Assembly: GCA_037130265.1 (NCBI GenBank)
Contig: JBAXTI010000001.1
Location: 235,086 to 299,085, forward strand
DNA length: 64,000 nt
Source of the DNA: a bacterium
GTDB taxonomy: Bacteria; Patescibacteriota; Minisyncoccia; Phycocordibacterales; JBBTRF01
Reading direction: 5' to 3'
Shown one piece after another: positions 9,958 to 51,972 of this stretch (positions are counted from its first letter, which is position 1; the number at the start of each line of letters is the position of its first letter). The notes below the pieces were generated by a model that made no database searches, was not told the origin of the DNA, and was given only the letters and a program-made list of their open reading frames with translations. The position numbers and the translations under genes are program-made.

Positions 9958-9988
9958 CGATCAATCGCCCAACTTTGTGCTTTAAACC

Positions 9989-11811: not shown

Positions 11812-11817
11812 AGACAC

Positions 11818-26026: not shown

Positions 26027-26073
26027 TAGAGTGGTTAATTGCGAGAAAAGACTCGAGAGAATATAATTCTCTC

Positions 26074-26865
26074 ATGGCTCGTAAGTGGACAACTGAAGAA
26101 GAAAGCAACCATCGACACGAGCTGAGCGAGTTGTACGAACACGGTAACTTATCTATTGGACAGATCGCAAAGCGGCTCGGCATTGCTCAGCAGACCATTT
26201 TCAAGCGCATTCGTCGGCTCGGTCTCGTGCCTCACCCTGAGCGAAAGTCGAAGTATAGAAATACGCGGAATGACATCCATATCCCAGAAGAATATTCCGA
26301 TGAACTGGCGGAATTTATCGGGATCATGCTTGGGGACGGTCACCTGTCGCACTTTCAGGCGGTGGTTACATTGGGAACGAAAGAGGTTCCCTATGCTCGG
26401 TATGTCCGTAGGCTCATCACGAAGCTTTTTAAAGCAGAGGCGTCAATCTCGATTCGTGCTGACGGATATCGAGATGTATATCTCAGCTCGGTTGTGGTGA
26501 CAAAATGGCTACGGACACACGGTCTCGTTTCAAATAAAGTATTGGGTCAAGTCGCTCCACCAAAATGGATTTTTACGAAGCCTTCTTTCAAAGAGGCTTT
26601 TATAAGGGGAGTGTTCGATACTGATGGGTCCGTATACAAACTTCGTTTTGGCGTGCAAGTCTCATTTTCCAATCGATCCAGGCCGCTGCTCCGGTCTTTA
26701 CAATTAGCCTTAAGGCAATTACAATACACACCATCTGAGATCAGTGGATACCAGTTGTATCTCACGAAGAATTCAGACCTCAGACGCTTTCTGAAGGAGA
26801 TTTGTCCGAGGAATCCGAAGCATGTTCGTCGGTTCAGGCTCTTTCTGAAATCAGTAAAGAAGTAA
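26074..26865 (+). CDS. free-standing HTH plus double-motif LAGLIDADG homing-endonuclease-like protein
   Basis: Two LAGLIDADG motifs are present (AEFIGIMLGDGHLS and FIRGVFDTDGSVYK). The N-terminal HTH is LSIGQIAKRLGIAQQTIFKRIRRLG. The stop at 26865 is 13 nt before the tRNA-Tyr 5' end. Confidence 0.75.
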   Translation: MARKWTTEEESNHRHELSELYEHGNLSIGQIAKRLGIAQQTIFKRIRRLGLVPHPERKSKYRNTRNDIHIPEEYSDELAEFIGIMLGDGHLSHFQAVVTLGTKEVPYARYVRRLITKLFKAEASISIRADGYRDVYLSSVVVTKWLRTHGLVSNKVLGQVAPPKWIFTKPSFKEAFIRGVFDTDGSVYKLRFGVQVSFSNRSRPLLRSLQLALRQLQYTPSEISGYQLYLTKNSDLRRFLKEICPRNPKHVRRFRLFLKSVKK

Positions 26866-26878
26866 GCAGAGAACAGAA

Positions 26879-26963
26879 TGCGCAGGTACTCAAGCGGTCA
26901 ACGAGGACCGGCTGTAAACCGGTTGGCTACGCCTACGGGGGTTCGAGTCCCTCCCTGCGCACC
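26879..26963 (+). tRNA. tRNA-Tyr (anticodon GTA), long variable arm, CCA encoded
   Basis: GCGCAGGTACTCAAGCGGTCAACGAGGACCGGCTGTAAACCGGTTGGCTACGCCTACGGGGGTTCGAGTCCCTCCCTGCGCACCA. Anticodon loop CTGTAAA. Confidence 0.9.
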
Positions 26964-26974
26964 AAAATACAGCA

Positions 26975-26999
26975 AAAAAGCCCTAAAATAGGGCTTTTT
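26975..26999 (+). terminator. rho-independent terminator after tRNA-Tyr
   Basis: aaaagccctaaaatagggcttttttg. Confidence 0.7.
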
Positions 27000-27038
27000 T
27001 GCTGCGTCAGTTCAAGTTATTGAACCATTACGGCTCTA

Positions 27039-30357: not shown

Positions 30358-31019
30358 GTGAAGAAGAAAACTGAGCAACAAAAAGCGGCCCGAATCTTGC
30401 GAAAAAAGGGGTATTCGATGTCGGAGATCGCTGTCAAATTAATGGTGTCGCAAAGCTCTATATCTCTATGGACAAAGGACATTATGCTTTCTCCGGTGGC
30501 GCAAAAGAGAATCCATTCCATTGTCCTTTCAAGAAGAGAGACCGTGTCGAACACATTAAGAAGGAAGAAAAGGAATCGACTGGAACTAGCTGATAGTGTT
30601 GCAGCTGGGGAAATGCACCTTGGGGTATCTTCTTTGCGTCCGAATATGTTTTCGGTACTCGCCATGATCTATTTTTGTGAAGGAAATAAAATGATAGTAA
30701 TGTTGGTTTCACTAATTCTGATCCGGAATTAATGCGACTTTTCATTCAGTTATTGAGAAAATGTTTCTCTTTGGATGAGTCGAAGTTCAGGGCCTGTCTG
30801 CACGCTCATGACTATCATGATATCGAAAGGCAGAAAGCGTTTTGGTCTGAGGTGACGAATATTCCGCTGAAACAGTTTACAAAAACCTATAACAAGAAAA
30901 GCGCTCACGTATTCAAAAAACCAGGATATCAAGGGTGTCTGAGGATAAATTACTACGACGCGCACGTGGCGCGCGTGCTTCTGGCGTTTGCAAAAAAGCT
31001 CATGAAACACTATAGTTAA
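30358..31019 (+). pseudogene. frameshifted paralog of the HTH plus LAGLIDADG-like endonuclease family (same family as 46144-46854)
   Basis: Two ORFs (30358-30732 and 30732-31019) in adjacent frames together align along the full length of the 46144 protein. The HTH GYSMSEIAVKLMVSQSSISLWTKD matches TYSEILEAVPVARSTLSLWLRG. MIYFCEGNK matches LYWAEGSK. NDSNVGFTNSDPELMRLFIQLL matches NPGSGTYFSNTDLRMLQVF. YDAHVARVLLAF matches YYGCLRVKV. The frame switch maps to the A-rich run ggaaataaaatg at about 30685-30695. Confidence 0.65.
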
Positions 31020-31027
31020 TCCTCGAA

Positions 31028-31101
31028 GGGCGATTAGGTAAGTGGTATACCGGCGGACTCCAAACCCGCATTCGGAGGTCCGATTCCTCCATCGCCCGCC
31101 A
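31028..31101 (+). tRNA. tRNA-Trp (anticodon CCA), CCA encoded; slightly atypical T-loop (TCCGATT)
   Basis: GGGCGATTAGGTAAGTGGTATACCGGCGGACTCCAAACCCGCATTCGGAGGTCCGATTCCTCCATCGCCCGCCA. Acceptor GGGCGAT/ATCGCCC, D-stem GGTA/TACC, anticodon loop CTCCAAA, T-arm GGAGG-TCCGATT-CCTCC. It begins 8 nt after the pseudogene's stop. Confidence 0.7.
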
Positions 31102-37756: not shown

Positions 37757-37782
37757 GTAAAAACTTCATTTTTTCTTGAACA

Positions 37783-39081
37783 ATGCTTGATATTAAATTC
37801 ATCAGGGAGAATACCGAGCTTATACAGCTTGCTGCAAAGCGGAAATCAGTACCATTCGATGTCACTGCATTGATCAGTGTTGATGACAAGCGCCGTGAGC
37901 TCATGACCTCGCTCGAAAAGAAGCGTGCGGAGCAAAACGCGTACAACGAGCGCATTGTGAAGGCTGCGACTTCGGCTGACCCGAATGAACGCGCCACCCT
38001 CATTGCACAGATGAAGACGCTCAAGGACAGCATGCAGGCCGAGGAAGAGGCGCTCAAGGTGGTGATGAAAGAGTGGCAGGCGCTAATGGTACAGGTGCCA
38101 AATATTCCGGATATGTCTGTGCCGGACGGCAACAGTGATGCGGAGAACAAAGAGGTGAAGGCTTGGGGCGAGATTCCAAAGTTTGATTTTGCGCCAAAGA
38201 GCCATATCGAGCTCATGGAGGCGCTCAATCTCTGTGATTTTGACCGCGGTACTAAATTGGCCGGCTTCCGAGGCTATGTTTTGAAGAATGATGCGGTACT
38301 TCTCAATTTTGCTCTCTGGCAATTTGTGCTTGAGATGTATACCAAAAAAGGTTTCTCTCCAGCCATGGTGCCATCACTTGTGAACAAGAATCTGCTCATG
38401 GGCACCGGCTATCTCCCACAGGGTGAGGAGGATTTATACAAAACACAAGACACTACCTATCTCGCAGGCACTGGTGAGGTGGCGGCGATGGGATATCACA
38501 TGGATGAAGTACTCGACAAGTCTCAGCTCCCAGAAAAAACACTCGCTTTTTCTCCGTGTTTCCGACGCGAAGCTGGTGCACATAGCAAAGACACCAAGGG
38601 CGTGAAACGTGTGCATGAATTTTTCAAATTTGAACAAGTGATCCTCTGCGAGGCGAGCCACGAGACTAGCGTCGCACTTCATGAAGAGCTTCTCGCCAAT
38701 GTCGAGGAGATGATGCAGGCGCTCAATATTCCATACCACGTCGTACTCAACTGTGCCGGCGACCTCGGTCTTGGCCAGGTGAAGAAATACGATGTCGAAG
38801 CGTGGGTACCGTCCCAGAAGGCGTGGTGTGAGACACATTCATGTTCATATTTCCATGACTTCCAGACCCGCCGACTCAATATTCGATACAAGGATGCGGA
38901 GGGCAAAATGCGATTTGTGCACTCGCTCAACAACACAGCGCTCGCCAGCCCACGAATCCTCATCCCAATTCTCGAAAACAATCAACAGGCCGACGGATCG
39001 ATCAAGATTCCGCAGGTTCTCCAGAAATATATGGGCGGTCGCACTGTCATTCCTGCCACGCCAGCTAACGGGAATAACTAA
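37783..39081 (+). CDS. serS: serine--tRNA ligase
   Basis: MLDIKFIREN is the typical SerS N-terminus with a coiled-coil arm. Class II motifs are present (FRREAGAHSKDTKGVKRVHEFFKFEQV and GSIKIPQVLQKYMGG at the C-terminus). Confidence 0.9.
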   Translation: MLDIKFIRENTELIQLAAKRKSVPFDVTALISVDDKRRELMTSLEKKRAEQNAYNERIVKAATSADPNERATLIAQMKTLKDSMQAEEEALKVVMKEWQALMVQVPNIPDMSVPDGNSDAENKEVKAWGEIPKFDFAPKSHIELMEALNLCDFDRGTKLAGFRGYVLKNDAVLLNFALWQFVLEMYTKKGFSPAMVPSLVNKNLLMGTGYLPQGEEDLYKTQDTTYLAGTGEVAAMGYHMDEVLDKSQLPEKTLAFSPCFRREAGAHSKDTKGVKRVHEFFKFEQVILCEASHETSVALHEELLANVEEMMQALNIPYHVVLNCAGDLGLGQVKKYDVEAWVPSQKAWCETHSCSYFHDFQTRRLNIRYKDAEGKMRFVHSLNNTALASPRILIPILENNQQADGSIKIPQVLQKYMGGRTVIPATPANGNN

Positions 39082-39956
39082 TGGCGATCGGGCGTTCATC
39101 GAACCTCACCTCACCGCAGTATGCTCGACGGCAACACGAGCAGAAGATTCGCAAGGCAATCGTGGCGAGTGTTTCGTTGCTGATTATTCTCGCGTGCGTG
39201 ATCATCGTCGCTCGGTTGCGTATTTTTCAGATTCAATCGGTCCGGGTGGAGGGGAATTCGGTGACTGCGACGGGCGATGTGCAGGCGAAGGTTGTCGATC
39301 TCACCGCTGGCAATTATCTTTTTGTATTTCCGAAGACCAACGTACTCCTGTATCCAAAGCGAGTCATTCTCACTGCTCTCAAAAAAGAATGGTTCCGCAT
39401 CGATACTGTCTCGGCAGAATTGAATGGTCAGTGGCGAGGCCGGGCTGAACTCACGATACAGATGAGTGAGCGCAAGCCGATGTACGTGTGGTGCGGAAGT
39501 GTACCCCTGGCGGTTGTTTTGCCGGGTTCTGGCAGCGAAGATTGTCTTTATTCCGACGAAACTGGCTATCTCTACGCAACCGCTGCATCCTTTTCAGGGA
39601 CTCCATATGTGAAGCTGTATGGCGGTGTTGCAAACGATCTTTCACCGCTCGGTGCGCATTTTCTCGCTTCTTCGACACCGAATGCATTTGGCAGCGCTCT
39701 CTCTTTTGTCTCCGCGATTGGTGGTGTGGAATTCTTCGGTGCTTCGTTTAAGCCGATGGCCCTCATCGCCAAAGAGAACAATGAGTTTGAAGTGGTGGCT
39801 GCCGGCGGTACGCGCATTTTCTTCACCCTGAATCAAGATATCCAACGTTCCATCGAGGCGTTTCGCCGAGTGGTTGATTCAGAACATCTCATCACTGTAC
39901 CCGTGGAGTATATTGATCTGCGCTATGGGAACAAGGTGTATTACAAAAACCGCTAG
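39081..39956 (+). CDS. FtsQ/DivIB-like cell-division protein (POTRA-containing)
   Basis: A single TM segment (IVASVSLLIILACVIIVA) is followed by a POTRA-like pattern IQSVRVEGNSVTATGDVQAKVVDL...LLYPKRVILTAL...IDTVSAELNGQWRGRAELTIQMSERKP. Confidence 0.45.
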   Translation: MAIGRSSNLTSPQYARRQHEQKIRKAIVASVSLLIILACVIIVARLRIFQIQSVRVEGNSVTATGDVQAKVVDLTAGNYLFVFPKTNVLLYPKRVILTALKKEWFRIDTVSAELNGQWRGRAELTIQMSERKPMYVWCGSVPLAVVLPGSGSEDCLYSDETGYLYATAASFSGTPYVKLYGGVANDLSPLGAHFLASSTPNAFGSALSFVSAIGGVEFFGASFKPMALIAKENNEFEVVAAGGTRIFFTLNQDIQRSIEAFRRVVDSEHLITVPVEYIDLRYGNKVYYKNR

Positions 39957-39974
39957 CTGCGGTATACTATTGAG

Positions 39975-40364
39975 GTGAAAGCTCTGACTCTCTCGTGGCA
40001 GTATTTGCGATGGCACTACTCTCGGGCATTTGCCGAAATGTTCCGCATCATTGGGCGGGCATATTGGTTCGAGTATCACTTTTTTTCAGTCGGGATTCTG
40101 TTGAGGTCGTTTTTTGAGCCTTGGAAGCGTCTTGGCGAGGAAAAGGGAGAAACATTCAAGCTCGATGAGTGGCTACAGGCGACAGTGATCAATACATTGA
40201 TGCGACTCATCGGCATGTCACTACGCGCAGTCATTCTCATTTTTGCGCTGATCGTATGTGTGGTCACGACGGTGGTCGTGGCTTTGTTTGTGGCGATGTG
40301 GTGCTTGCTGCCGTTTATTATTCTCGCGCTGATCGTGAGAGGGATTCAGTTGGCGATTCAGTAG
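39975..40364 (+). CDS. hypothetical small membrane protein
   Basis: Three predicted TM segments. It lies directly upstream of the Clp-like ATPase gene. Confidence 0.35.
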   Translation: MKALTLSWQYLRWHYSRAFAEMFRIIGRAYWFEYHFFSVGILLRSFFEPWKRLGEEKGETFKLDEWLQATVINTLMRLIGMSLRAVILIFALIVCVVTTVVVALFVAMWCLLPFIILALIVRGIQLAIQ

Positions 40365-40383
40365 TGTGTATTTTTAATATGTA

Positions 40384-42834
40384 TTGACCATGGACTCCTC
40401 ACTCATCCAAAAAAAGATTCAAGCATTCCAACCGGCCTTGGCACTCGATGCTTTGGTTGGTTCAGCAAAGCGCCGGACGACGCGTCAGGTCTGGGCGACC
40501 GTGTTCGTGTCGCTTTTGGCGGTGGTGCTCGCCGGAAAGGGGGGCAATCTTGCGCTCGGACTTTTCTGCATTTCCTTTGCAATCGTGTTGAAGGTGTATG
40601 CGATCGAATTTTTCTTCAATTCATATGCGCATAGTCGTGATGCCGACTCTTCGTACATGCTCGCTTCGATGCTGTATCGCTGTACGACATTGCATCCGAC
40701 TGCTGTGTTTATCCTTTCGCCTTTTGGCCGCTGGACATTGAATCGGTGTGGTGTCGGCCGCCTCCCAGCACAGGCATTTTTGACACAAATGACCCATTCG
40801 GCGCAGCCGTTGCCATTGGACCTTTCGGAGGTGCGCACGTTTGCGCAGTTTGTTGAAGAATTGCTCCATGTTGATACGGCGTTTGCACAGTTTTTGCGAG
40901 AATCTGGGGTGGAGAAGAGTGCGTGTATCGGCGCGGCGGAGTGGTGTGAGATTCGCGAGAAGGCTCGTATTGCACAGGCGCGCTGGTGGAGTCATGAAAG
41001 TCTCGCGCGTATTCCGGGATTGGCGAAAGATTGGGCGTATGGCAAAACATATCATTTGGATCGTTTTGGCCGGGATGTGATTGTTGATGCACGTCGACAT
41101 TCGGCTTTGTCGTCTCCTGCGGCTTCGACATTGAGCCTGAATCCTGAATCGTCTTTCCGCCGTGCCGAAATGGTGGCGGTGGAGAAGGTCTTGGTACGAG
41201 ATGGTGCGGGCAGTGCTCTGTTGGTGGGCGACAAGGCGAATGGGGTAATGGATGTGATTCATGGAATCGCCCGGATGATTGATCTCGGTATTGCATACCC
41301 AGAAATCGAGCACAAGCGTTTGATTCGTCTTGATACCCCTTCGATCATGGCGTCGGTGAAGGATCGTGGTTCTTGCGAGGCGTTACTCATTTCTATTTTC
41401 AATGAAGTGGTGAAGGCGGGGAATGTGATTGTGGTGATCGATGAGTTTGCGCTGTTTGTACGCGACACTGCCGCCCTCGGAATCGAAGTACAGTCGCTCC
41501 TTGCCCCGTATCTGTCCTCGGGCGGCGTCCAGCTCATCGCGGTCTCCGACGTGCATTCGTTCCATCAGGTGTTGGAGCCAAAAGCTGAGCTTATGCGATT
41601 TTTTGAAAAGATTCTCCTTGCGCCGATCGACTCCCGTGTGCTTGTGGAGCTGTTGGAGTCGGAAATCGAGCGTGTGGAGCGTCGCAACGGTGTTTTCTTC
41701 ACCTTTCCGGCCATGAAGGAGGTGGTGGAAAGTGCAGAGCGGTATTTTTCACAGGGTTCAAGTATCGACAAGGCACATGACCTCATTGCCGAGATTGCGC
41801 CTTTTGTGCGCGGGCAGAAGCGCAATGTGGTGGAGCGGGCAGATGTGCTCAGTGTGGTGAGCACCAAGACAGGTATTCCACTTGGCGAAGCGTCGGCGGG
41901 CGAGAAGGATGTACTTTTGAAACTTGAAAGTATCTTGCATCAGCGGATTGTTGGGCAGGCGGCGGGTATTCAAGCGATCAGCAACGCAATGCGACGTGCG
42001 CGTTCCGGCGTGAACAATCCAAAGCGTCCGATGGGCTCCTTCCTCTTTATCGGACCAACGGGTGTGGGTAAGACGGAGATGACGAAGGCTCTGGCGAGTG
42101 TATTTTTTGGCAGCGAAGATCGGATCATGCGTTTCGATATGTCGGAATATCGCACGCCGGATGCGCTTGAGCGACTCATCGGCTCGGCGAGTGGTGGGGC
42201 GCCTGGCTTGTTGGCTTCACATTTGCGCGACCAACAATATGGCGTGCTTTTGCTCGATGAATTCGAGAAAACAAACTCCACCGTGCACGATCTGTTTTTG
42301 CAGATCTTGGACGAAGGTTTTTTCACTGATGCGAGTGGTGAGCGGGTGAATGCGCGAAACACTATTATTATTGCGACCTCGAATGCGGGGAGTGATGTGA
42401 TTTGGAAGTTGCTCGGCAATATGAGCGGCAGTGCGGCGGGTGCCAGTGTTGGTGGCGCGACGGGCACATCGATCGCAGATAAAAAATCTGAGATTATCGA
42501 CTCGATCGTTGAGCGCGCAATTTTCAAACCGGAATTGTTGAATCGTTTTGATGATGTGGTGTTGTTCCAGCCGCTTTCGCCGAACGACATGGAGAAGGTC
42601 GGGCGACTCATGTTGGCAAAGCTGAACAAGCGCCTCGATGAAAAGGGGGTGAGTGTCGAAGTTACCGACGAATTGGTGGCGTATTTGGTGAAGGAGGGGT
42701 GTGACCAGAAGTTTGGGGCACGAGCGATGAATCGAGCCATTCAGGAGAAGGTGGAGCAGGCCGTGGCGAAGGCACTTTTGAAAGGTGAGGCAAAACCTGG
42801 TACAGTGCTGCACATCCGACCGGAGGAGCTGTAG
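40384..42834 (+). CDS. membrane-anchored Clp/Hsp100-family ATPase with degenerate D1 and intact D2
   Basis: About 100 N-terminal aa contain two hydrophobic helices. A D1-like region follows with Walker A replaced (LLVGDKANGVMDVIHGIARMI where ClpA/B has LIGEPGVGKTAIxEGLA), although IVVIDEF and PDKAIDL-like elements (IDKAHDLIAE) are retained. A canonical D2 follows ([77 protein letters not shown], sensor GARAMNR). Confidence 0.7.
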   Translation: MTMDSSLIQKKIQAFQPALALDALVGSAKRRTTRQVWATVFVSLLAVVLAGKGGNLALGLFCISFAIVLKVYAIEFFFNSYAHSRDADSSYMLASMLYRCTTLHPTAVFILSPFGRWTLNRCGVGRLPAQAFLTQMTHSAQPLPLDLSEVRTFAQFVEELLHVDTAFAQFLRESGVEKSACIGAAEWCEIREKARIAQARWWSHESLARIPGLAKDWAYGKTYHLDRFGRDVIVDARRHSALSSPAASTLSLNPESSFRRAEMVAVEKVLVRDGAGSALLVGDKANGVMDVIHGIARMIDLGIAYPEIEHKRLIRLDTPSIMASVKDRGSCEALLISIFNEVVKAGNVIVVIDEFALFVRDTAALGIEVQSLLAPYLSSGGVQLIAVSDVHSFHQVLEPKAELMRFFEKILLAPIDSRVLVELLESEIERVERRNGVFFTFPAMKEVVESAERYFSQGSSIDKAHDLIAEIAPFVRGQKRNVVERADVLSVVSTKTGIPLGEASAGEKDVLLKLESILHQRIVGQAAGIQAISNAMRRARSGVNNPKRPMGSFLFIGPTGVGKTEMTKALASVFFGSEDRIMRFDMSEYRTPDALERLIGSASGGAPGLLASHLRDQQYGVLLLDEFEKTNSTVHDLFLQILDEGFFTDASGERVNARNTIIIATSNAGSDVIWKLLGNMSGSAAGASVGGATGTSIADKKSEIIDSIVERAIFKPELLNRFDDVVLFQPLSPNDMEKVGRLMLAKLNKRLDEKGVSVEVTDELVAYLVKEGCDQKFGARAMNRAIQEKVEQAVAKALLKGEAKPGTVLHIRPEEL

Positions 42835-44154
42835 GTGGGGGAGGGGCCAATCTGGTACGTGGCGATTTATATGAATTTTTTTCAGAAAACACGAGACATA
42901 TTTAGCGATACTTTTGGCCACCTTTTTTCTGCTGATGTAGAGCGGGGGGATTTGTGGTATCGATTGAAGCAGGCGAAAGCGGGTCTGGAGGCTGGCAAGG
43001 CGGGTGAGAAGCCGGCCGAGCCAATTTTCGTGTTGGCACCGATGGCAGATGTGACCGATGCGGCGTTCCGAAAGATTATTGCGAAGTACAGCCGGATGGG
43101 CGCGCGAGCGCAGGGGGCGCCGGATGAGCGGGTGGCTGGCGGCCCGGACGCAATGTGGACGGAATTTGTGTCGGCGGACGGACTCGCTCGCGCGCCCAAA
43201 ATCGGCCGAGACAAATTGTTGCGAGATTTGTTGTATAGCGAAGGGGAGCGGCCGATCATCGCACAGTTTTTCACTTCGAATCCGGCTCATATGGAGCTGG
43301 CCGCTGAACTCGCGGTGGAGATGGGGTTTGATGGGATCGATATTAATATGGGCTGTCCGGACAAAAGTATTGAGAAGCAGGGGGCGGGGGCGTCGATGAT
43401 CAAAAGTCCACGAGTTGCGCGCCGAGTACTTCGAGCGGCTCTGCGCGGTGCTGCGAATGGTGCAAAGAAGTACGGCAAGCCCGTCCCGGCAGTCTCCGTG
43501 AAGACGCGTATTGGGTATGGAAAAAACGAATTGGCGACATGGTTGCCGGCATTGCTCGCGGAGCGTCCCGCATTGATTACTGTCCATGCTCGTAATCGCA
43601 AAGAACTTTCTTTGGTACCAGCGCGTTGGGAACATGTGCGCGAAGCGGTGGAGATCCGGGATCGAGTGCAAGCGAATTTGCCGATCGAAAAGCGCACGCT
43701 CATTTTTGGTAATGGTGATGCACGAAATCTTGCTGATGCTCGAGAAAAAGCGCGCATGAGTGGTGCTGATGGGGTGATGCTTGGCCGTGCCATCTTCGGC
43801 AACCCATGGCTTTTCGACGAAAGCGCCTATATGCATGTGGATACGAATGCTGGTGGCAAGGGTGTTGATGCGGCGAGCGGGCACGCAATTGGTTTTGGTG
43901 GGGCGGTGTTGGGCGTTGATCATTTTTATAACAAAGCTCAGATCGAAGAACGCCTCCGAGTGATGGTGGAGCATACGGAACTCTTTGAAAAACTGCTTGG
44001 TGACCTAAAGAACTTCTCGATTATGAAGAAGCATTACAAGGCGTATGTGCATGGTTGGGAAGGGGCGAAGGAGCTGCGTGCACTGCTCATGCAGACCAAC
44101 TCAGCAGGGGAGGCGAAGGGGGTTGTGGACAACTATTTGACTAAAACAAGCTAG
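42835..44154 (+). CDS. dus: tRNA-dihydrouridine synthase (Dus family) with an N-terminal extension
   Basis: VLAPMADVTDAAFRKI, GFDGIDINMGCPDKSIEKQGAGASMI (catalytic Cys) and VSVKTRIGY. Confidence 0.8.
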   Translation: MGEGPIWYVAIYMNFFQKTRDIFSDTFGHLFSADVERGDLWYRLKQAKAGLEAGKAGEKPAEPIFVLAPMADVTDAAFRKIIAKYSRMGARAQGAPDERVAGGPDAMWTEFVSADGLARAPKIGRDKLLRDLLYSEGERPIIAQFFTSNPAHMELAAELAVEMGFDGIDINMGCPDKSIEKQGAGASMIKSPRVARRVLRAALRGAANGAKKYGKPVPAVSVKTRIGYGKNELATWLPALLAERPALITVHARNRKELSLVPARWEHVREAVEIRDRVQANLPIEKRTLIFGNGDARNLADAREKARMSGADGVMLGRAIFGNPWLFDESAYMHVDTNAGGKGVDAASGHAIGFGGAVLGVDHFYNKAQIEERLRVMVEHTELFEKLLGDLKNFSIMKKHYKAYVHGWEGAKELRALLMQTNSAGEAKGVVDNYLTKTS

Positions 44155-44722
44155 CGTGCTATAATAGCAAATAGATGTTGAGTGGGATTGCAATGGATTG
44201 CGCGCAAGCAATATGTCCTATGGCCCAGCTCACTTCCACGGTGGCAAATCCTCGCAAGAGGGAATTCGTGTGCAAAATGAATTATTTCGCTGCCGTAGCC
44301 CTTTCCCGCCACCCCTCTCCGCACTGTAGTGCTCGGGGTGGCGGTTTTCTTTTGTGAAAAATTACACACTTGAGTTGGCTTTATTAAAAAACAGGTATAC
44401 AATTATCTAGGGTTGAGGTCATAACAATTCAGTCGATTGAGCGCGACCAGCTCACAAAAAAGATCGATTGATACAAGACGGAAGGAACCAAACAATGCGA
44501 CCACATACGATAGTCATCGCAACGGGAGTCGAAGCAAGTGCGTGCCATCAAGAGTGCAACGCCGGTGCTCGCGGCTCGTCTTTCCTTGTTCATGAACTCG
44601 TCTGCGCCTCTGGTGGGCGCTAAAGGAGGTGATCATTCATCTCGAGGGCGGCCAGGCTCGTTTGCTGGTTTAGCGTAATGCTGACACTCAAGTGAGTGCG
44701 TCCTCGTCACTTTTTTGGTTGT

Positions 44723-44752
44723 GGTTTCGGTTTGGTTTGGTTTGGTTTGGTT
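44723..44752. repeat. simple tandem repeat (GGTTT/GGTTTC)x6
   Basis: ggtttcggtttggtttggtttggtttggtt lies inside the 750-nt noncoding region upstream of dnaX. Confidence 0.8.
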
Positions 44753-44906
44753 ACGGTCTCGGTTCTGTGTTGGTTTGTGTTTCGCGAAGACTGTTTGCTT
44801 CGCGTTCTGGTGGTTAGCGGGTCCGGTTGAAGGGAGCGACACCTTCAGCCGGGCCTTTTTTGTTTGCCAATTATTTCTTCCTGTCTTTTTCTGCTATACT
44901 TTCCGC

Positions 44907-46124
44907 ATGAAAGCCGAGGAAAAGAGCAAGAAAGGGGCCGACGGAGCAGCCGGGACGATGGCTGTCAAGGAGGTGAGCGCAGCCCGCACCGCTTCCCACA
45001 GCGCTTTGTACCGCAAATACCGCCCTGCGAGCTTTGCCGACGTGCTTGGACAGGAGCAGGTGGTGAAGGCGCTCGAGGGGGCGATTGGTGCCGGTAAAAA
45101 TACCGCGGGCAAAAGCGGCACTTCGACCACCGGCCGGCCGAACATTTCCCACGCCTACCTCTTCTCCGGCTCACGTGGCACGGGCAAGACCTCAGTGGCA
45201 CGCATTTTTGCACAGGCAATCGGTACGTCGGCCAATGACCTCTACGAGATCGATGCGGCATCGAATCGTGGCATCGACGATGTGCGCGAGCTTCGCGAGG
45301 CGGTGAACACATTGCCTTTTGAGTCGCCATACAAGGTGTACATCATCGACGAGGTGCACATGCTCACCAAGGAGGCCTTCAACGCGCTCTTGAAGACGCT
45401 TGAGGAGCCGCCTGCGCATGTTGTGTTTATTTTGGCGACGACGGATCCGGAAAAGCTTCCGCAGACGGTGGTGTCGCGCTGTCAGACGTTTGTGTTCAAG
45501 AAACCGGGGACGGAGCTACTCAAGGAGAGTGTGTTGCGTGTGTCGAAAGCAGAAGGATTCAAGGTTGCAGATGAGGCCGCTGAGCTCATCGCCTTGCTTG
45601 GCGACGGATCGTATCGCGACACGCTCGGTGCGCTTCAGAAGGTGCTGGGGGCGGTGGGGGGAGGTGAGGCCGGTAGCGCGAAGGGTGCAAAAAGTAGCGG
45701 TGCGACGGAGGTGACCCTCGAAGACGTCGAGCGCGTCACTTCGGCGCCGCGTTCGAAGCTGGTGCAAGACTTCATTCTCGGTCTTGGCGAGGGGTCGGCG
45801 GGCGGTGCTGAAAAAGCGTTGGCGGTGATCCGACAGACGCAGGAGCACGGTGTCGACATGCGTGTGTTTGTGACGATGGTGTTGCAGAAAGTCCGCTTCA
45901 TCTTGCTCATGCGTATGTCGGCAGAAATGGAGAAGATTGCAAAGGAGCAATTTTCCGAGGCGGAATTTGTGTTTCTGAAGAAATGTGCGGGGGATGGTTC
46001 CGGCACAAAGATTAATTCAAAAGTGGTGCTCGAATTGCTTGCCGCACTTGAGCAGACAGGCAGTTCGCCGATTCCGCAATTGCCGCTCGAGCTTGCGGTT
46101 TTGCGGTTGACCCAAGAGAAATAA
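44907..46124 (+). CDS. dnaX: DNA polymerase III subunit gamma/tau (short form)
   Basis: YRKYRPASFADVLGQEQV, Walker A HAYLFSGSRGTGKTSVARIFA, YKVYIIDEVHML, and EEPPAHVVFILATTDPEKLPQTVVSRCQ. The start is placed at the ATG at 44907 (MKAEEKSKK). The upstream in-frame extension is hydrophobic and low-complexity and is unlikely to be real. Confidence 0.85.
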   Translation: MKAEEKSKKGADGAAGTMAVKEVSAARTASHSALYRKYRPASFADVLGQEQVVKALEGAIGAGKNTAGKSGTSTTGRPNISHAYLFSGSRGTGKTSVARIFAQAIGTSANDLYEIDAASNRGIDDVRELREAVNTLPFESPYKVYIIDEVHMLTKEAFNALLKTLEEPPAHVVFILATTDPEKLPQTVVSRCQTFVFKKPGTELLKESVLRVSKAEGFKVADEAAELIALLGDGSYRDTLGALQKVLGAVGGGEAGSAKGAKSSGATEVTLEDVERVTSAPRSKLVQDFILGLGEGSAGGAEKALAVIRQTQEHGVDMRVFVTMVLQKVRFILLMRMSAEMEKIAKEQFSEAEFVFLKKCAGDGSGTKINSKVVLELLAALEQTGSSPIPQLPLELAVLRLTQEK

Positions 46125-46143
46125 TTTTTGATATAATTGACGA

Positions 46144-46854
46144 ATGCACAATGCGGCATCGTATCCTCTGTTCAAGACGAGGGCCGTGCAGCTTCGTCTG
46201 GAAGGAAAAACATATAGTGAAATCCTAGAGGCTGTGCCTGTGGCAAGGTCGACACTTTCGCTTTGGCTAAGAGGCACTTCTTTGGCGGAACCGCAGAAGC
46301 AAAGATATACCGAAAAGAAGCGCCTAGCCGCTTTGAGAGGCGGACAAAAAAGAAAGCAGGACCGGATCGATATCACCAAGACTATTTTTGAAAAGTGCCG
46401 CAGCGATATTTCCATGATCACGACGAGAGAGCTATGGCTCATCGGGATTTCGCTGTATTGGGCAGAAGGGTCGAAGCAAAAAGAGTACAATCCCGGCTCA
46501 GGTACATATTTTTCTAATACTGATTTGAGAATGTTGCAAGTATTTGTCGCTTGGTTGGAGCGATGCGTTGGTATCCAATCTGAGGATATTTCTTACGACC
46601 TTTTCTTACACGAGACTGCGCGGAAAAAGTTGCTCGAAGTCGAAACGTATTGGAGAAGCGGACTGAATATTACGCGAGATCAGCAGTTCAGTGTGTATTG
46701 GAAACGGACTCAGATACGGACGAGCAGGCGCAACATTGGCGACTTGTATTATGGGTGTCTTCGGGTTAAAGTAAGGGCGAGTTCGTCGTTGAATCGAGCA
46801 CTTGCCGGCTGGGCTGATGCGATTACTGGTGCTGTCTGTTGTCACGAGATATAG
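46144..46854 (+). CDS. HTH plus LAGLIDADG-like (single degenerate motif) endonuclease-like protein
   Basis: The N-terminal HTH is TYSEILEAVPVARSTLSLWLRG. WLIGISLYWAEGSK resembles a LAGLIDADG helix, with Glu at the acidic position. It is paralogous to the 30358-31019 pseudogene. The stop at 46854 is 14 nt before tRNA-Gln. Confidence 0.55.
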   Translation: MHNAASYPLFKTRAVQLRLEGKTYSEILEAVPVARSTLSLWLRGTSLAEPQKQRYTEKKRLAALRGGQKRKQDRIDITKTIFEKCRSDISMITTRELWLIGISLYWAEGSKQKEYNPGSGTYFSNTDLRMLQVFVAWLERCVGIQSEDISYDLFLHETARKKLLEVETYWRSGLNITRDQQFSVYWKRTQIRTSRRNIGDLYYGCLRVKVRASSSLNRALAGWADAITGAVCCHEI

Positions 46855-46868
46855 TGTTTCCAATTTTT

Positions 46869-46939
46869 TGGGGGATCGTCTAATGGTAGGACATCAGGTT
46901 TTGGTCCTGAGTATCGGGGTTCGAGTCCCTGTCCCCCAG
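46869..46939 (+). tRNA. tRNA-Gln (anticodon TTG)
   Basis: TGGGGGATCGTCTAATGGTAGGACATCAGGTTTTGGTCCTGAGTATCGGGGTTCGAGTCCCTGTCCCCCAG. U1-A72 and G73 match the bacterial Gln identity set. Anticodon loop TTTTGGT. Confidence 0.85.
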
Positions 46940-47024
46940 CAGTCTAGTTTAGTTCTGAACGACCAAGAGGGGTCAGAACAAACAGATATCTATACCGTCA
47001 TCGCATACCTGCTGAGAGCAGTAT

Positions 47025-47052
47025 TCAAGACAAAAAATCACCGATACAAGTC
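47025..47052 (+). terminator. rho-independent terminator downstream of tRNA-Gln
   Basis: aatcaccgatacaagtcggtgatt followed by ttttg. Confidence 0.65.
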
Positions 47053-47093
47053 GGTGATTTTTTGTTAAGATAAGATGGATTAATTGATTATGT

Positions 47094-47675
47094 ATGTCAG
47101 AAAATACCTGGAAAGAATACTTCGAAAGAACAAAAGATAGTAAACCTAGACCTCTACTTGTTAAGGCAGTGGATTTGGTGGTGGACAAAAATGAAGCACT
47201 TGATTTGGGCTCGGGTGCTTTTAATGATGTTAGATACTTGGTTTCGAAAGGTTTTAAACATATTACAGCTGTAGACAGTAAACCGATAGCTCAAGGTATC
47301 ATTCAGAATTTTCCGACAGAAATTGTCTCATATATTATCAGTTCTTTTGAGAATTTTGATTTTGTTGAAAACAAATATGATCTTATAAATGCTCAATACT
47401 CTCTACCATTTAACCCAGAGAATACTCTTGAAAGAGTTTTCAAATCAATCACTTCTTCTCTTAAAGATGGAGGGATACTCACAGGTCAATTTTTTGGAAC
47501 TAAAGATGAATGGAATGTTGAAGGCCATAAAATGAATTTTCAAACTCGCGAACAAGCAGAAAAATTACTAAGTGGTTTAGAAGTTATTGATTTTCAAGAA
47601 GAGGAGGAAGATAGAAAAACAGCAAAGGGAGATATGAAGCATTGGCACGTTTTCCATTTTATAATAAAAAAATAA
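47094..47675 (+). CDS. class I SAM-dependent methyltransferase (island cargo)
   Basis: Motif I ALDLGSGAFNDVRYLVSKGFKHITAVD. Small MTase fold, possibly TehB-like. Confidence 0.55.
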   Translation: MSENTWKEYFERTKDSKPRPLLVKAVDLVVDKNEALDLGSGAFNDVRYLVSKGFKHITAVDSKPIAQGIIQNFPTEIVSYIISSFENFDFVENKYDLINAQYSLPFNPENTLERVFKSITSSLKDGGILTGQFFGTKDEWNVEGHKMNFQTREQAEKLLSGLEVIDFQEEEEDRKTAKGDMKHWHVFHFIIKK

Positions 47676-47676
47676 T

Positions 47677-48171
47677 ATGGAAATAAAAACTCAAATAACA
47701 AATAGTAGAGGAAAAGTTTTCGATACTATATATAAAGATGGAGATCCTGAAACAGATTTAGAAAATAGTGTTATACACGGTGTTCATTCATTTTGCTTTT
47801 ATAAAGATAAGATGGTTATAGTTTCAAATTCAAGAAAAGAGTGGACTCCTCCTGGTGGCGGTATTGAACCTGGAGAGAATTATAAAGAAGCATCTATCCG
47901 TGAAATAAAAGAGGAAGCAAACATGAAAGTTCTTCACCAAGAGTGCATTGGTTACCAAGACGTTTGGATATCGGATGAAAACAGGATGGTAAGGCAGGTA
48001 CGAATGTTTTGTATAGTTGAACCATATGGAGATTTTGAGAAAGATCCTGATGGAGATATTTTAGAAATAAAACTGATTGATCCAAAAGATTATAAAGAAT
48101 ATATAAAATGGGGAGAAATCGGAGATCATTTGATGGGAAGAGCTTTAGAGCTTAGTCAAAAAATAAAATGA
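47677..48171 (+). CDS. NUDIX hydrolase (island cargo)
   Basis: Nudix box GGGIEPGENYKEASIREIKEEANM (Gx5Ex7REUxEExGU). Confidence 0.75.
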   Translation: MEIKTQITNSRGKVFDTIYKDGDPETDLENSVIHGVHSFCFYKDKMVIVSNSRKEWTPPGGGIEPGENYKEASIREIKEEANMKVLHQECIGYQDVWISDENRMVRQVRMFCIVEPYGDFEKDPDGDILEIKLIDPKDYKEYIKWGEIGDHLMGRALELSQKIK

Positions 48172-48812
48172 AACTTATTTTTCAATATAATAAAGAAAAA
48201 GATATTTGGTGCATCCTTAACAAAGGAAAAAGTTCTAATAATTCTCCAATTCCTACTAAAGTATATGAAGAACTTGTGGCAACATGCGGAGAAAATCCTT
48301 CGGCGGATTCCACATCTTCTTTTGTAAATAAATACTTTTTAGATAAAAACATAAAAGTAAATGAATATATAGAAAAATATCAGAGGGACTGGTATAGCAT
48401 TACAGAGAAATATCAAAAAAGAGCAGAGTCAGTGTTTGGAGTTTCATTACCGAGCGACATTGTTGTGTATCTTACGATTAATAATAGATGTCCATACAAC
48501 ATAGAAGATAATTACTTTTTTGTGACAATTCCTGCTTCTTCAGTTAGAAGAACAATAATGCACGAATTGTGGCATTTCTATATGTGGTACGGGCTAGGAG
48601 CAGATCAAGAAGAAAAATTAGGAAAGCAAAAGTATAATGATTTAAAAGAGGCTTTGACTGTATTGCTCAACGTGGAATGTAAAGATTTACTGCCAGAAGG
48701 GGTATATGATGGCGGTTATCCACAACATAAGGAAGTGAGAGAAGAAATTTTAGAATATTGGTCAAAAAATAAAAATATCAAGGATCTTTGGAAATATTTA
48801 CAGACAAAATAA
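48168..48812 (+). CDS. hypothetical protein with an HExxH motif (island cargo)
   Basis: IMHELWHFYMW contains HExxH. There is no other recognisable similarity. Confidence 0.35.
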   Translation: MKLIFQYNKEKDIWCILNKGKSSNNSPIPTKVYEELVATCGENPSADSTSSFVNKYFLDKNIKVNEYIEKYQRDWYSITEKYQKRAESVFGVSLPSDIVVYLTINNRCPYNIEDNYFFVTIPASSVRRTIMHELWHFYMWYGLGADQEEKLGKQKYNDLKEALTVLLNVECKDLLPEGVYDGGYPQHKEVREEILEYWSKNKNIKDLWKYLQTK

Positions 48813-48813
48813 T

Positions 48814-49581
48814 ATGGACATCGATAAACACAAAAAACAATTCGGTAATCAAGCAGAAAACTATACTAAGTATAGAAAACCATATACTGAAAAGTTATAT
48901 GAGCTTCTTTTCTCCTTAGCTCCTGGAAAAAAGATTCTAGATATAGCTTGTGGTACAGGTAAATCTACAGAACCGATGGTCAGAAGCGGAACGGAAGTTA
49001 TAGGATGTGATCACGATCCACTGATGATTGCAGAAGCTATTAAGCAGGCTGAGATTAAAAGCTCACCTATTAAATACATTGTTGCAGATGTTGAACATTT
49101 ACCATTTGAAGATTCAAACTTTGATGTAGTAACTGTAGGCACGGCATTTCATTGGTTTGTAAATGAAAAGTCTGTTACAGAAATAAAACGAGTACTTAAG
49201 GAAAAGGGTTTATTTTTTATTTTTTGGACTCTTACCACTAAAGATGTACCTGAAGAAGATTCCATCCCAGGAAGTTTCTATAAAACATTCAATTGGGATA
49301 AAGTTCCACCTGAATTAAGAAATTTAGATTATATTTCAAATTTCTTCAAAGAGCAGGGATTCCAGAATGTTAACACCGCAAGAATTCCATTTAGTCACAA
49401 TGATACCGTCGAAGAACAAGTAGGACTAATGAAAACAGCTTCAAGTTACGAGATTCTATCAGATAGTGAAAAAGAACGATTTATCAGAGAGTTAACTGAA
49501 CTTCTTACAACTAAATTAGGTAATAGACCCTACTTCACTTACGAAGAGGAAATACAGGTGTGTTATGGGTTCAAGAAATAA
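48814..49581 (+). CDS. class I SAM-dependent methyltransferase (island cargo)
   Basis: Motif I ILDIACGTGKSTEPM, then post-I GCDHD, then VTVGTAFHWF. Confidence 0.65.
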   Translation: MDIDKHKKQFGNQAENYTKYRKPYTEKLYELLFSLAPGKKILDIACGTGKSTEPMVRSGTEVIGCDHDPLMIAEAIKQAEIKSSPIKYIVADVEHLPFEDSNFDVVTVGTAFHWFVNEKSVTEIKRVLKEKGLFFIFWTLTTKDVPEEDSIPGSFYKTFNWDKVPPELRNLDYISNFFKEQGFQNVNTARIPFSHNDTVEEQVGLMKTASSYEILSDSEKERFIRELTELLTTKLGNRPYFTYEEEIQVCYGFKK

Positions 49582-49598
49582 TCATATAAAGTAATTAT

Positions 49599-50585
49599 AT
49601 GGAGTCAGTTTTACAAAAAATAACGGAAGAATATAACCTCAATTTTAAAGTTCTTGATAAGGTTACTCAAGGTTTTTTAAGTGATAATTATATTCTTGCT
49701 GATGGTCAAAAGAAGTATTTTCTTAAGAAATATAGGTTTAAAAATAAAGAACGAATGAGTGAGGTACATTCTGCGAAAAGATATTTCTTCGAAGGTGGTA
49801 TTCCAGTAATTATGCCCTTGCTCACAGATTCAGATGAAAGCTTTTTTGAACATAATGGGAGTTTTTATGCCCTCTTTCCTTTCATATTAGACCATCAACT
49901 TAAACCAGATGAAATCACTAAAGACGCGATTGTTTCTCTTGGAGAAACTCTTGCTCGACTACATCTTCGAGGAAAAGAAAGTAAACTTAAAATAAATGAA
50001 TTTTTCAGACCATGGGATAAAGAAGAGCGAATGAGAGGAATCAATCAAATTCTCGAAAAGATCTCACTCATAGAAAACAAAACCGATTTTGATATTCAAG
50101 CCGAAAAGAACATCTTGCTCAAGAAATCAGTTATTGAATCAAATAATCGAACATATGAATCTTTTAACTTTCTTAATGATCACCTCATTCACGGCGATTA
50201 CATGATAGGAAATGTATTTTTTGATGACCAGAACAATGTATCCAATGTGTTTGATTTTGAAAAAACAGAATATGCACCTAGATTTTTTGAGCTGTTTCGT
50301 TCAATGATATATACAACTTTCTTTGATGAAAATATTACGGAAGAGACTTTGGCTAATACAAAACTCTATCTCGATTCATATTTGAATATATATCCTATGT
50401 CAAAAGAGGAATTGGATGATGCTTTTACAGCATATTATATCAACAGATCTCACTCTTACTGGGTGGAAGCTGAGCATTATCTTAGAGGGAATACGAGAGC
50501 TGATGAACTTCTTGAAAGTGATATTGCACGCATGAATTATTTTTCAGAGAATTTTGAAGTATTAAAGAAGTATCTTATAGAATAG
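49599..50585 (+). CDS. aminoglycoside-phosphotransferase/choline-kinase-fold (APH-like) kinase (island cargo)
   Basis: Brenner motif HGDYMIGNVFFDD and a downstream DFE (VFDFEKTEYAP) are present. Length and layout fit small-molecule kinases of the APH/ChoK/HSK-II family. Confidence 0.6.
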   Translation: MESVLQKITEEYNLNFKVLDKVTQGFLSDNYILADGQKKYFLKKYRFKNKERMSEVHSAKRYFFEGGIPVIMPLLTDSDESFFEHNGSFYALFPFILDHQLKPDEITKDAIVSLGETLARLHLRGKESKLKINEFFRPWDKEERMRGINQILEKISLIENKTDFDIQAEKNILLKKSVIESNNRTYESFNFLNDHLIHGDYMIGNVFFDDQNNVSNVFDFEKTEYAPRFFELFRSMIYTTFFDENITEETLANTKLYLDSYLNIYPMSKEELDDAFTAYYINRSHSYWVEAEHYLRGNTRADELLESDIARMNYFSENFEVLKKYLIE

Positions 50586-51918
50586 TAATAAGTTTCTCTT
50601 TCAGAATAATCTTACTCTTTAAACATCCCAGTAAATCTCTTTTTTCAAATATTGATCCTTCGGTTAGTAAATACCTAGCGTAGTTTCTAATGTCAGCATC
50701 TTTCGCTTGATAGTTTTCTTCAGTCTTACCCATTATTCCAGAATGAAATTTCTTATGTCTCTCTATTTCGATTTCCAACTTCTTTTTAAGACCAGATTTG
50801 TCTAGATCAATCCTATCTATCATTTCTAGTAATTGTGATATTAAAACTTTTTCTTCAATGTAGCCTTCTTTGCAATGAATATTTTTAGATCGAGTACAAC
50901 CATAGTATATATACTTTGCTATCGTTCCATCTTTTAGATTCTTATACTTTTCCTGTGCAGTTACTCCTGATCCACATACTCCACAAGTAAGCATCCGAGT
51001 AAATGCAAACTCTTTATTTTTTTCAGTCGATTTTATTTGTAAATGTAATTGTTTTTGTGCCGCATCAAACAAATCTTTTGATATGAGTGGAGTATGTTTA
51101 CCTTGAAACCATCTACCACTTAATTTTGGGTATTCAAAAGTGCCATGATAAAAGTGATTATCTAAAATAGTGTAGACATTACTTAGGGTTAGAGGCTTTC
51201 CATTTCTGGATAGGAATTTAATCTCTCGTAACCATTTATATACTTTTCTGCCACTCCAACTCTCATATCCGACTTTCGTAAACATTTCTTTGATAATTGA
51301 GCTTCTGTCTGGATCTACTAATACTACGCCCGGCTTGTCTCTGTCTTTAGAATTTAAGTAGCCAGTAGGAGCGACACTCGGCCAAAGTCCCATTTCACAT
51401 TTTGTTTTGAGTCCTCGTTTTACATTAATGCTTTTATTGTCGTTCTCAAGTTTGGCTTGTGATCCGAGAATCATGAGTAGAAATTTCTCATTTGGATTGT
51501 TTGTAAATCTTTGGCTATGAGTCCGTATCTCAATTAACTTTTTCTGATCTAGTAAGTCTACTAATGATCCAAGATCTCCAGCATTTCTGCTTAAACGATC
51601 TGGATGCCACACAAGTATTCCATCAAACTTTCCATTCCTAATATCTGTAAGAAGTTTGTTGTATACCGGTCTTTGCCCGCAATCTTTTGCTGAATGGGAT
51701 TCTCTATAAATCTCTAGAATATTGAGGTTATCCCTTTGGGCAATGTTGAGCATCTCTTTAACCTGAGAATCTACTGACAAAGCCTGCCTTTCCTCGGCTT
51801 CGCTTGATTTACGGGCATACTCATTAACAGATGAGTCTCTACCAAATGAAAAAAGATTCAGCAAAAACTGTCCTGTGCTACGGAGACTCAAACACGTGGG
51901 GTTCAAAATAATCTTCAT
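50575..51918 (-). CDS. large serine recombinase (resolvase/invertase catalytic domain, recombinase domain and Zn-ribbon)
   Basis: N-terminal ARKSSEAEERQALSVDSQ (catalytic Ser region), GILVWHPDRLSRN, then a recombinase domain and CGVCGS...YYGCTRSK...HC zinc ribbon. Confidence 0.75.
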   Translation of the reverse strand: MKIILNPTCLSLRSTGQFLLNLFSFGRDSSVNEYARKSSEAEERQALSVDSQVKEMLNIAQRDNLNILEIYRESHSAKDCGQRPVYNKLLTDIRNGKFDGILVWHPDRLSRNAGDLGSLVDLLDQKKLIEIRTHSQRFTNNPNEKFLLMILGSQAKLENDNKSINVKRGLKTKCEMGLWPSVAPTGYLNSKDRDKPGVVLVDPDRSSIIKEMFTKVGYESWSGRKVYKWLREIKFLSRNGKPLTLSNVYTILDNHFYHGTFEYPKLSGRWFQGKHTPLISKDLFDAAQKQLHLQIKSTEKNKEFAFTRMLTCGVCGSGVTAQEKYKNLKDGTIAKYIYYGCTRSKNIHCKEGYIEEKVLISQLLEMIDRIDLDKSGLKKKLEIEIERHKKFHSGIMGKTEENYQAKDADIRNYARYLLTEGSIFEKRDLLGCLKSKIILKEKLITIL

Positions 51919-51972
51919 GAAGGATTCGATAGTGCCTTGCCCAGTGAACCATCGTTCACCTATAATAGGTGA

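Follow-up and report, generated by a model that had tools for sequence, protein, structure and literature searches.

The transcription factor WhiA of Gram-positive bacteria is derived from LAGLIDADG proteins; it carries two LAGLIDADG domains followed by a helix-turn-helix (HTH) at its C-terminus and has lost the catalytic acids. The homing endonuclease I-TevI doubles as an autorepressor that binds an operator at its promoter, and the gene for the phage T4 endonuclease SegB lies in a tRNA cluster, where flanking tRNA markers are carried along in recombination. Here, we analyzed a 64,000-nucleotide (nt) stretch of DNA from a bacterium of the Patescibacteriota (hereafter the window), in which an open reading frame (ORF) for a protein with an HTH and a divergent, apparently LAGLIDADG-like domain lies directly before the gene for tRNA-Gln(UUG). 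This gene, which we call Gln-type, stops 14 nt before the tRNA (46855-46868) and follows a dnaX-type ORF (AAA and DNA_pol3_delta2 domains) whose 3′ end is at 46124. A preliminary description of the sequence had reported the ORF, its place after dnaX and its spacing from the tRNA, and all of these particulars hold in the ORF list, ARAGORN and Rfam.

Overall, after comparing this locus with its relatives, we found that the gene and the tRNA form an old unit and not a recent insertion. The unit is also undescribed: neither the Gln-type family nor its tRNA linkage is mentioned in the literature that we searched, including papers on introns and homing endonucleases of Patescibacteria. We tentatively favor the explanation that the gene encodes a homing-endonuclease-derived, probably dimeric protein that binds or cleaves DNA and has long resided in the leader of tRNA-Gln, where it may still be selfish or may have been domesticated. 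The interpretation given in the preliminary description was partly supported.

Each subfamily lies next to one tRNA gene

For comparison, 80 loci were kept, one genome per species, chosen for carrying the Gln-type gene; because of this selection, the linkage runs from gene to tRNA only and is not the share of tRNA-Gln genes that have the gene. In all 77 loci that reach past the 3′ end of the gene, tRNA-Gln(UUG) is adjacent on the same strand, and the remaining 3 of the 80 end at a contig edge. Such adjacency is far beyond chance. The distance from the stop codon to the tRNA, measured in 65 loci, ranges from -81 to +25 nt, and in 29 of these 65 the stop codon lies inside the mature tRNA-Gln. 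At the commonest spacing of -15 (23 loci), the ORF ends in GIV or GVV, with its stop codon on the TAA of the tRNA D-loop.

Paralogues of the gene lie before other tRNAs. The window itself contains a Trp-type copy before tRNA-Trp(CCA), and the alignment of the two products, which the preliminary description had proposed, identified it as a true paralogue over its full length (hhalign probability 100%, E 1.3e-46). This copy is frameshifted in an A-run (AAAA, 30688-30691), where a fifth A would bring the frame back; it could be a pseudogene, or the shift could stem from slippage-prone phase variation or from an error in the assembly. Intact Trp-type homologues elsewhere are 216-222 amino acids (aa) long and lie between rpmG and tRNA-Trp. 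All six other loci examined, which represent four distinct homologues, have tRNA-Trp(CCA) at a distance of -15 to +35 nt. In a divergent subfamily with the motif LYLGEGAK (P0150), the neighbor is tRNA-Arg(UCU), at +28 nt (L097 and L098, 2501-3284). These two loci have a tRNA-Val upstream in divergent orientation.

A third gene of the window, the Tyr-type gene, occupies the same position before tRNA-Tyr(GUA). Its product matches Pfam LAGLIDADG_3 (E 2e-15) and has 605 homologues, and both motif aspartates of the family are invariant. The gene is followed by tRNA-Tyr and then a terminator (26062-27002), and within the same interval a perfect palindrome, GAGAGAAT-ATA-ATTCTCTC, covers its TATAAT box and reaches as far as the ATG. 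An overlap of 10-31 nt between this ORF and tRNA-Tyr was seen in each of three other genomes (3 of 3). The tight coupling to a downstream tRNA that had been noted earlier is indeed common to the Gln-, Tyr- and Trp-type genes, but the supposed kinship between the Gln- and Tyr-type families was not borne out, as hhalign detected no homology beyond the HTH (probability 2%). The Gln-type superfamily and the unrelated LAGLIDADG_3 family have thus converged on the position immediately 5′ of a specific tRNA. Endonuclease lineages with separate home sites would be expected to show such a pattern of one tRNA per subfamily.

In one locus (L090, 1241-4639), the LAGLIDADG_3-tRNA-Tyr unit stands between two genes for class Ic aminoacyl-tRNA synthetases (tRNA-synt_1b), one of which has an S4 domain and so probably encodes tyrosyl-tRNA synthetase. 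This placement may be a coincidence.

Table 1. Positions in the window of the Gln-type gene, its parts and signals, and the other two tRNA-linked genes.
Feature	Position	Strand	Remarks
Gln-type gene (HTH and divergent LAGLIDADG-like protein)	46144..46854	+	ATG ORF, 236 aa
tRNA-Gln(UUG)	46869..46940	+	ARAGORN; Rfam tRNA 46869-46939, 59.1 bits
Putative extended -10 promoter element TGaTATAAT	46129..46137	+	sequence reading; hexamer ends 6 nt before ATG
N-terminal three-helix HTH (aa 4-44)	46153..46275	+	
Long basic connecting helix (aa 57-89)	46312..46410	+	secondary structure of AlphaFold2 (AF2) model
C-terminal alpha/beta domain (aa 94-231)	46423..46836	+	
Motif helix WLIGISLYWAEGSK	46435-46476	+	within C-terminal domain
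Terminator-like hairpin ATCACCGA / TCGGTGAT and T-run	47032..47064	+	read by eye; absent from consensus scan
Trp-type paralogue, frameshifted	30358..31019	+	ends 8 nt before tRNA-Trp(CCA) 31028-31101
Tyr-type gene, HTH and double-motif LAGLIDADG_3	26074..26865	+	ends 14 nt before tRNA-Tyr(GUA) 26880-26964

Protein family, fold and inheritance

The N-terminal HTH of the Gln-type protein appears to be of the DNA-binding transposase/resolvase type, and its recognition-helix region, KSTLSLWL, is nearly invariant. Pfam and NCBIfam, neither of which has a model for the family, gave only sub-threshold HTH matches for the 236-aa protein (HTH_23, E 0.009). Neither the protein itself nor the profile of its family found a match in PDB sequence searches, and PHROGs, PADLOC and a tblastn search of 50,697 phage records returned nothing for the Gln-type. 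Among 5.8 billion proteins searched, we found 519 homologues of ~230 aa with 45-53% identity, all of them unnamed and none with a Pfam domain; those with source names come from Paceibacterota, Parcubacteria and related groups of the candidate phyla radiation. A profile made from Gln-type and Trp-type sequences extended the family to a superfamily of 8,755 cluster representatives (E <= 1e-3 among 1.84 billion). When one genome per species was scanned, at least 581 genomes encoded a relative, including that of the cultured Minisyncoccus archaeiphilus.

The family is strongly conserved. An alignment of 30 sequences has 34 invariant columns, and across 135 single-unit representatives R18, G21, W41, E108, G109, K111, F123, N125, D127, H156, W170, K187, Y202 and G204 are 95-100% conserved, with E108, G109, K111, N125, D127, H156 and K187 at 96-100%. 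Additionally, tandem proteins of 396-576 aa, most of them Ala/Arg-rich (as are those of 424-576 aa), consist of two complete units of HTH plus C-domain (P0271-P0279, P0336 and P0353). Among LAGLIDADG enzymes, homodimers classically become pseudo-dimers through tandem fusion, and these fusions suggest that the single-unit proteins work as dimers. With the Ala/Arg-rich proteins, which may represent a dimer-to-monomer fusion, the superfamily may also reach beyond the Patescibacteria lineages of our other searches.

The AF2 model of the 236-aa protein (predicted local distance difference test score, 85) has some resemblance to LAGLIDADG folds. Fold comparison gave Z-scores of 6.8 for WhiA (8dy9_I), 6.7 for the TliVMA intein endonuclease, 6.6 for I-Tsp061I (20% identity over 91 residues), 6.1 for I-DmoI and E-DreI, 5.8 for WhiA (3hyi), 5.5 for I-CeuI, 5.3 for both PI-PfuI and I-Vdi141I, 4.8 for I-CvuI and 4.3 for I-MsoI. 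The Z-score of such matches was always below 8, and YjgF/RidA folds scored almost as high. We considered membership of the YjgF/RidA (chorismate-mutase-like) group and rejected it, as a fold match together with the sequence signature of that family was not obtained. Foldseek with the full-length model against the PDB found nothing, the best hit being OmpA-like (E 0.12).

The motif helix (residues 98-111) contains the segment SLYWAEGSK, in which E108 and G109 reach conservation values of 0.99 and 1.00. A107 precedes them, and the model helix ends at G109. E108-G109 closes the first helix of the C-domain in the model, where LAGLIDADG enzymes have their catalytic acid. The helix has the pattern of a LAGLIDADG motif helix, a terminal Asp or Glu followed by Gly with small packing residues, and E108 may accordingly have a catalytic role. 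One relative also gave a faint match to the LAGLIDADG_3 hidden Markov model (HMM) in the expected register (E 0.027). With moderate confidence, we regard the C-terminal domain as LAGLIDADG-like, but we do not assign the protein to the LAGLIDADG family. The weak points of the LAGLIDADG-like identity proposed earlier are the modest fold scores and the lack of any LAGLIDADG HMM match of the protein itself.

A set of observations weighs against the idea of a homing endonuclease, the first of them structural. No significant match to a LAGLIDADG profile was found (Pfam LAGLIDADG_1/2/3 and the WhiA LAGLIDADG domains), and hhalign against the LAGLIDADG_3 family gave a probability of 2% for the full-length protein and 0.5% for the C-domain. 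In the model, a helix appears to lie between the presumed strands of the second hairpin, and the predicted order is not the textbook alpha-beta-beta-alpha-beta-beta-alpha. The others concern inheritance. dnaX precedes the ORF in the same orientation in 56 of the 80 loci, from many Paceibacteria orders, and dus lies upstream in 26. Pairwise identities of the ORF and dnaX are correlated (Pearson 0.45, Mantel p 0.001), with a median of 0.50 for the ORF, which is higher than the 0.44 of dnaX. Close genomes have close ORFs, and no pair of genomes has ORFs far more similar than their dnaX genes. A pattern search of metagenome contigs for an empty tRNA-Gln site found no such site and is uninformative, since it yielded 5 short contigs without a comparable locus (four match tRNA-Lys(UUU) genes or stretches that resemble a tRNA, and the fifth an array of tRNA-Gln genes). 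The mobile, patchy distribution expected of LAGLIDADG homing endonucleases was not seen for the Gln-type. The gene is old, strongly constrained and, as it seems, mostly vertically inherited, and its conserved synteny and co-divergence with dnaX make it resemble a host gene under organismal selection and not an active homing element.

Vertical inheritance and strong constraint point to domestication. In a second explanation, which we consider unlikely, the protein would be a WhiA-like domesticated regulator that has no nuclease activity: its HTH and LAGLIDADG-derived domain would only bind DNA and control its own promoter, and hence the tRNA supply or other genes. The near-invariant E108, K111, N125, D127, H156 and K187 look more like an active site than a binding surface, and a general regulator would not readily account for paralogues that are each fixed to a tRNA of their own. 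Disrupted copies exist, which also speaks against it, and the HTH-first, single-domain order is unlike that of WhiA, whose model TIGR00647 is not matched.

Transcription unit, junction and AT-rich island

No Shine-Dalgarno sequence precedes the 236-aa ORF, and this, together with a -10 element 6 nt from the ATG, points to a leaderless mRNA. The window has six occurrences of the arrangement TATAAT-N6-RTG, where 0.41 would be expected, and three of these belong to the tRNA-linked genes at 46144, 26074 and 30358. The others are at 2676, before a 99-aa ORF with a hydrophobic stretch, at 51961, near the start of a dinB-like gene, and at 55349, within a long ORF for a repeat protein; the use of leaderless starts may be more widespread in this genome. 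In 76 related loci, -10-like hexamers peak just 5′ of the ORF start, and our scan found no consensus promoter between the ORF start and tRNA-Gln. A peak of such hexamers 81-90 nt 5′ of the tRNA was considered as an internal tRNA promoter within the ORF. It lies roughly at the codon for the conserved Tyr202 and the following Asn/Tyr codon (TAT AAT, TAT TAT) and was set aside as unproven. As we read it, the promoter, leaderless ORF, tRNA and terminator would make up one unit whose mRNA doubles as the 5′ leader of the tRNA, and tRNA-Gln is probably co-transcribed with the gene.

The promoter region often has an inverted repeat. In the 70 nt upstream of each ORF start (L002-L081; arms of 9-15 nt), a repeat that brackets the -10 and ends at the ATG was found in 27 of 67 loci, against 1.9 in shuffled sequences and 1 in a displaced control. 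Examples are TCGAACAACG and CGTTGTTCGA, separated by 21-33 nt, and TAGGTAGTAT with ATACTACCTA. The inner bases differ between lineages yet stay complementary, which is compatible with either a hairpin or an operator that co-evolves. No clear inverted repeat is present in the window copy. The notion that the repeat mimics part of the tRNA (GGTTCGA, GGTAG) was rejected, as k-mers of at least 7 nt were shared in 17 of 65 loci against 14.5 in shuffled sequences.

The end of the ORF marks a boundary. In the closest relative, L096, the ORF is 80% identical, and nucleotide homology of 78% extends over 37085-46835, breaks off 19 nt short of the stop codon of the ORF and resumes only at 53948 (L096 side, 9692-11942). 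The tRNA-Gln(UUG) genes of the window and L096 are only 67% identical. The window tRNA is instead 97% identical to that of a distant, Taylorbacteria-labelled locus (L034), where the ORF is 48% identical. Across 46 loci, tRNA identity (58-100%) and ORF identity are uncorrelated (Spearman 0.03). The homology break and the differing tRNA-Gln genes suggest that the tRNA was replaced together with the downstream region.

These figures bear on another explanation, in which each subfamily is a cognate RNA factor that binds or processes the precursor of its adjacent tRNA by cutting the leader, chaperoning or modifying it. The restriction of each subfamily to one tRNA species, the probable sharing of one transcript by the ORF and tRNA, which often overlap, and the long basic helix of the protein would all suit such a factor, and LAGLIDADG proteins that act as RNA maturases are known. 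However, tRNA-Gln varies independently of the protein and gives no sign of co-evolution with it, and the HTH appears to be of a DNA-binding transposase/resolvase type. Moreover, nothing obvious is common to the Gln(UUG), Trp, Arg(UCU) and Tyr tRNAs, and the Pfam, NCBIfam and PDB searches revealed no likeness to known tRNA enzymes. We consider an RNA factor rather improbable.

Past ~47000, the guanine-cytosine (GC) content falls from the 0.48-0.58 of the window to 0.32-0.34, a level kept until ~51800, which agrees with the AT-rich island that the preliminary description had placed 3′ of the tRNA-Gln terminator. The island (~47070-51800, GC ~0.32) contains methyltransferase, NUDIX and APH-type genes and a large serine recombinase (~50479-51768, minus strand). 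The same description had suggested that the endonuclease-tRNA unit may be part or target of an insertion hotspot, and on this reading the Gln-type gene would be a mobile endonuclease gene that entered recently between dnaX and tRNA-Gln and either belongs to this island or gave rise to it. The start of the island right after the tRNA terminator, its recombinase and the break at 46835 in the last codons of the ORF would agree with such an event. However, the order dnaX-ORF-tRNA-Gln, with dus before it in some loci, is kept across the Paceibacteria in the 56 species genomes mentioned above, and the ORF co-diverges with dnaX. In addition, L096 has the ORF without the island, with three other genes in its place, and the GC content of 46001-47000 is 0.48, near that usual in the window and unlike the 0.32 of the island. 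No att-like repeat was found, and the far end of the island has no duplicated tRNA or ORF fragment. A recent insertion is therefore very improbable in our view, and of the insertion hotspot suggested earlier the homology break inside the ORF end stands, but not the insertion of the gene itself. Because the break lies there and L096 lacks the island, the ORF/tRNA junction appears to be a recombination boundary, and the island is a separate acquisition of foreign DNA.

Two related possibilities were also rejected. The gene as cargo of a tRNA-targeting island conflicts with its presence in L096 without the island, with the difference in GC content and with the lack of a junction repeat. An island that brought its own tRNA and displaced the old one would fit poorly with the window, which has no second tRNA-Gln and no copy of the ORF 3′ end.

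Some Gln-type copies are interrupted. In-frame TAA codons occur in 3 of the 80 (L022 at ~1772; L053 at ~4079 and ~4667; L069 at ~4172) and fall at conserved Gln (CAA) positions, with L053 also having one at a Glu position; the rough chance of this Gln bias is 0.005-0.1. In these loci, the downstream tRNA is still UUG and dnaX has no in-frame stops, on which ground genome-wide TAA-to-Gln recoding in L022, L053 and L069 was rejected. The copies are either pseudogenes that arose through C-to-T changes or genes read through by the adjacent tRNA-Gln. Together with the frameshifted Trp-type copy, they suggest decay as in the life cycle of endonucleases.

Proposed role and comparison with known systems

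Overall, the explanation that we tentatively favor can be put as follows. In the distant past, a homing endonuclease would have taken up residence in the 5′ leader of the unit from which tRNA-Gln is transcribed, and its present descendant is proposed to be a sequence-specific nucleic-acid binder with an HTH, a basic helix and one LAGLIDADG-like domain that keeps E108-G109. The extended -10 would fire 6-7 nt upstream of the ATG and produce a leaderless mRNA that continues into tRNA-Gln and stops at the terminator, after which RNase P would cut at the tRNA +1 and free the tRNA. Because RNase P releases the tRNA, the gene would cost the tRNA nothing, much as introns and inteins are removed from their hosts. 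A transcript whose stop codon falls within the tRNA could not yield both a full mRNA and a mature tRNA, and the protein level would be low. The protein would act on DNA as a homodimer, in the ORF/tRNA junction or close to it, and autorepression by way of the inverted repeat is also probable in many lineages. One tRNA per subfamily, the parallel with LAGLIDADG_3, the retained acid, the fusions, the decayed copies and the recombination boundary all argue for an endonuclease origin.

We also speculate, with a good deal of doubt, that the 5′ leaders of bacterial tRNA precursors hold a large unrecognized class of endonuclease-type genes, made up of the present superfamily and, independently of it, a LAGLIDADG_3 family, in which each lineage keeps to one tRNA species. 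In that class, RNase P would serve as splicing does for the homing endonucleases of introns and inteins, and translation would compete with tRNA maturation on the shared transcript. The in-frame TAA codons at conserved Gln positions, a short way 5′ of tRNA-Gln(UUG), hint at a bolder version, in which synthesis of the protein is tied to its own tRNA.

If these ideas are correct, the site 5′ of a tRNA, with removal by RNase P, would be a third harmless host niche for genes of the homing-endonuclease type beside introns and inteins, and a superfamily of ~8,755 clusters now annotated as "hypothetical protein" would gain a name and a testable function. Several tRNA genes of Patescibacteria, including those of Minisyncoccus archaeiphilus, would be expressed as mRNA-tRNA hybrids, which would bear on the control of tRNA supply in minimal cells. 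The proteins themselves may be compact dimers that bind or cut DNA at specific sequences and offer new specificities, and the gene/tRNA junction appears to be a recombination point at which tRNA genes and foreign islands are exchanged.

Compared with the known systems, the Gln-type gene is distinct from each. The homodimeric, single-motif enzymes I-CreI, I-CeuI, I-MsoI and I-Vdi141I have no HMM-level similarity to it, and the extra inter-strand helix is predicted here. Relative to the I-CreI type, the Gln-type protein adds an N-terminal HTH and a conserved N-S-D / H / K set, and its gene lies outside introns and inteins, with vertical inheritance and conserved synteny. WhiA is not tRNA-linked, and the Gln-type protein differs from it in its one domain, its N-terminal HTH and its invariant glutamate, and matches neither TIGR00647 nor the WhiA Pfam models. 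The inverted repeat around the -10 in 27 of the 67 loci, of which the window copy has no clear version, may be an operator as in I-TevI. Like SegB, named in one source as a phage homing endonuclease (PMC13096335), the Gln-type is an endonuclease-type gene among tRNA genes. In contrast to SegB, a phage GIY-YIG protein, it has another fold, belongs to a cellular chromosome and is fixed 5′ of one tRNA across a bacterial class. The Tyr-type family, annotated by NCBI as LAGLIDADG family homing endonuclease, has two canonical motifs with invariant aspartates and is tied to tRNA-Tyr, unlike the Gln-type, but shares with it the same succession of TATAAT-N6-ATG, HTH, endonuclease-type domain, tRNA and terminator.

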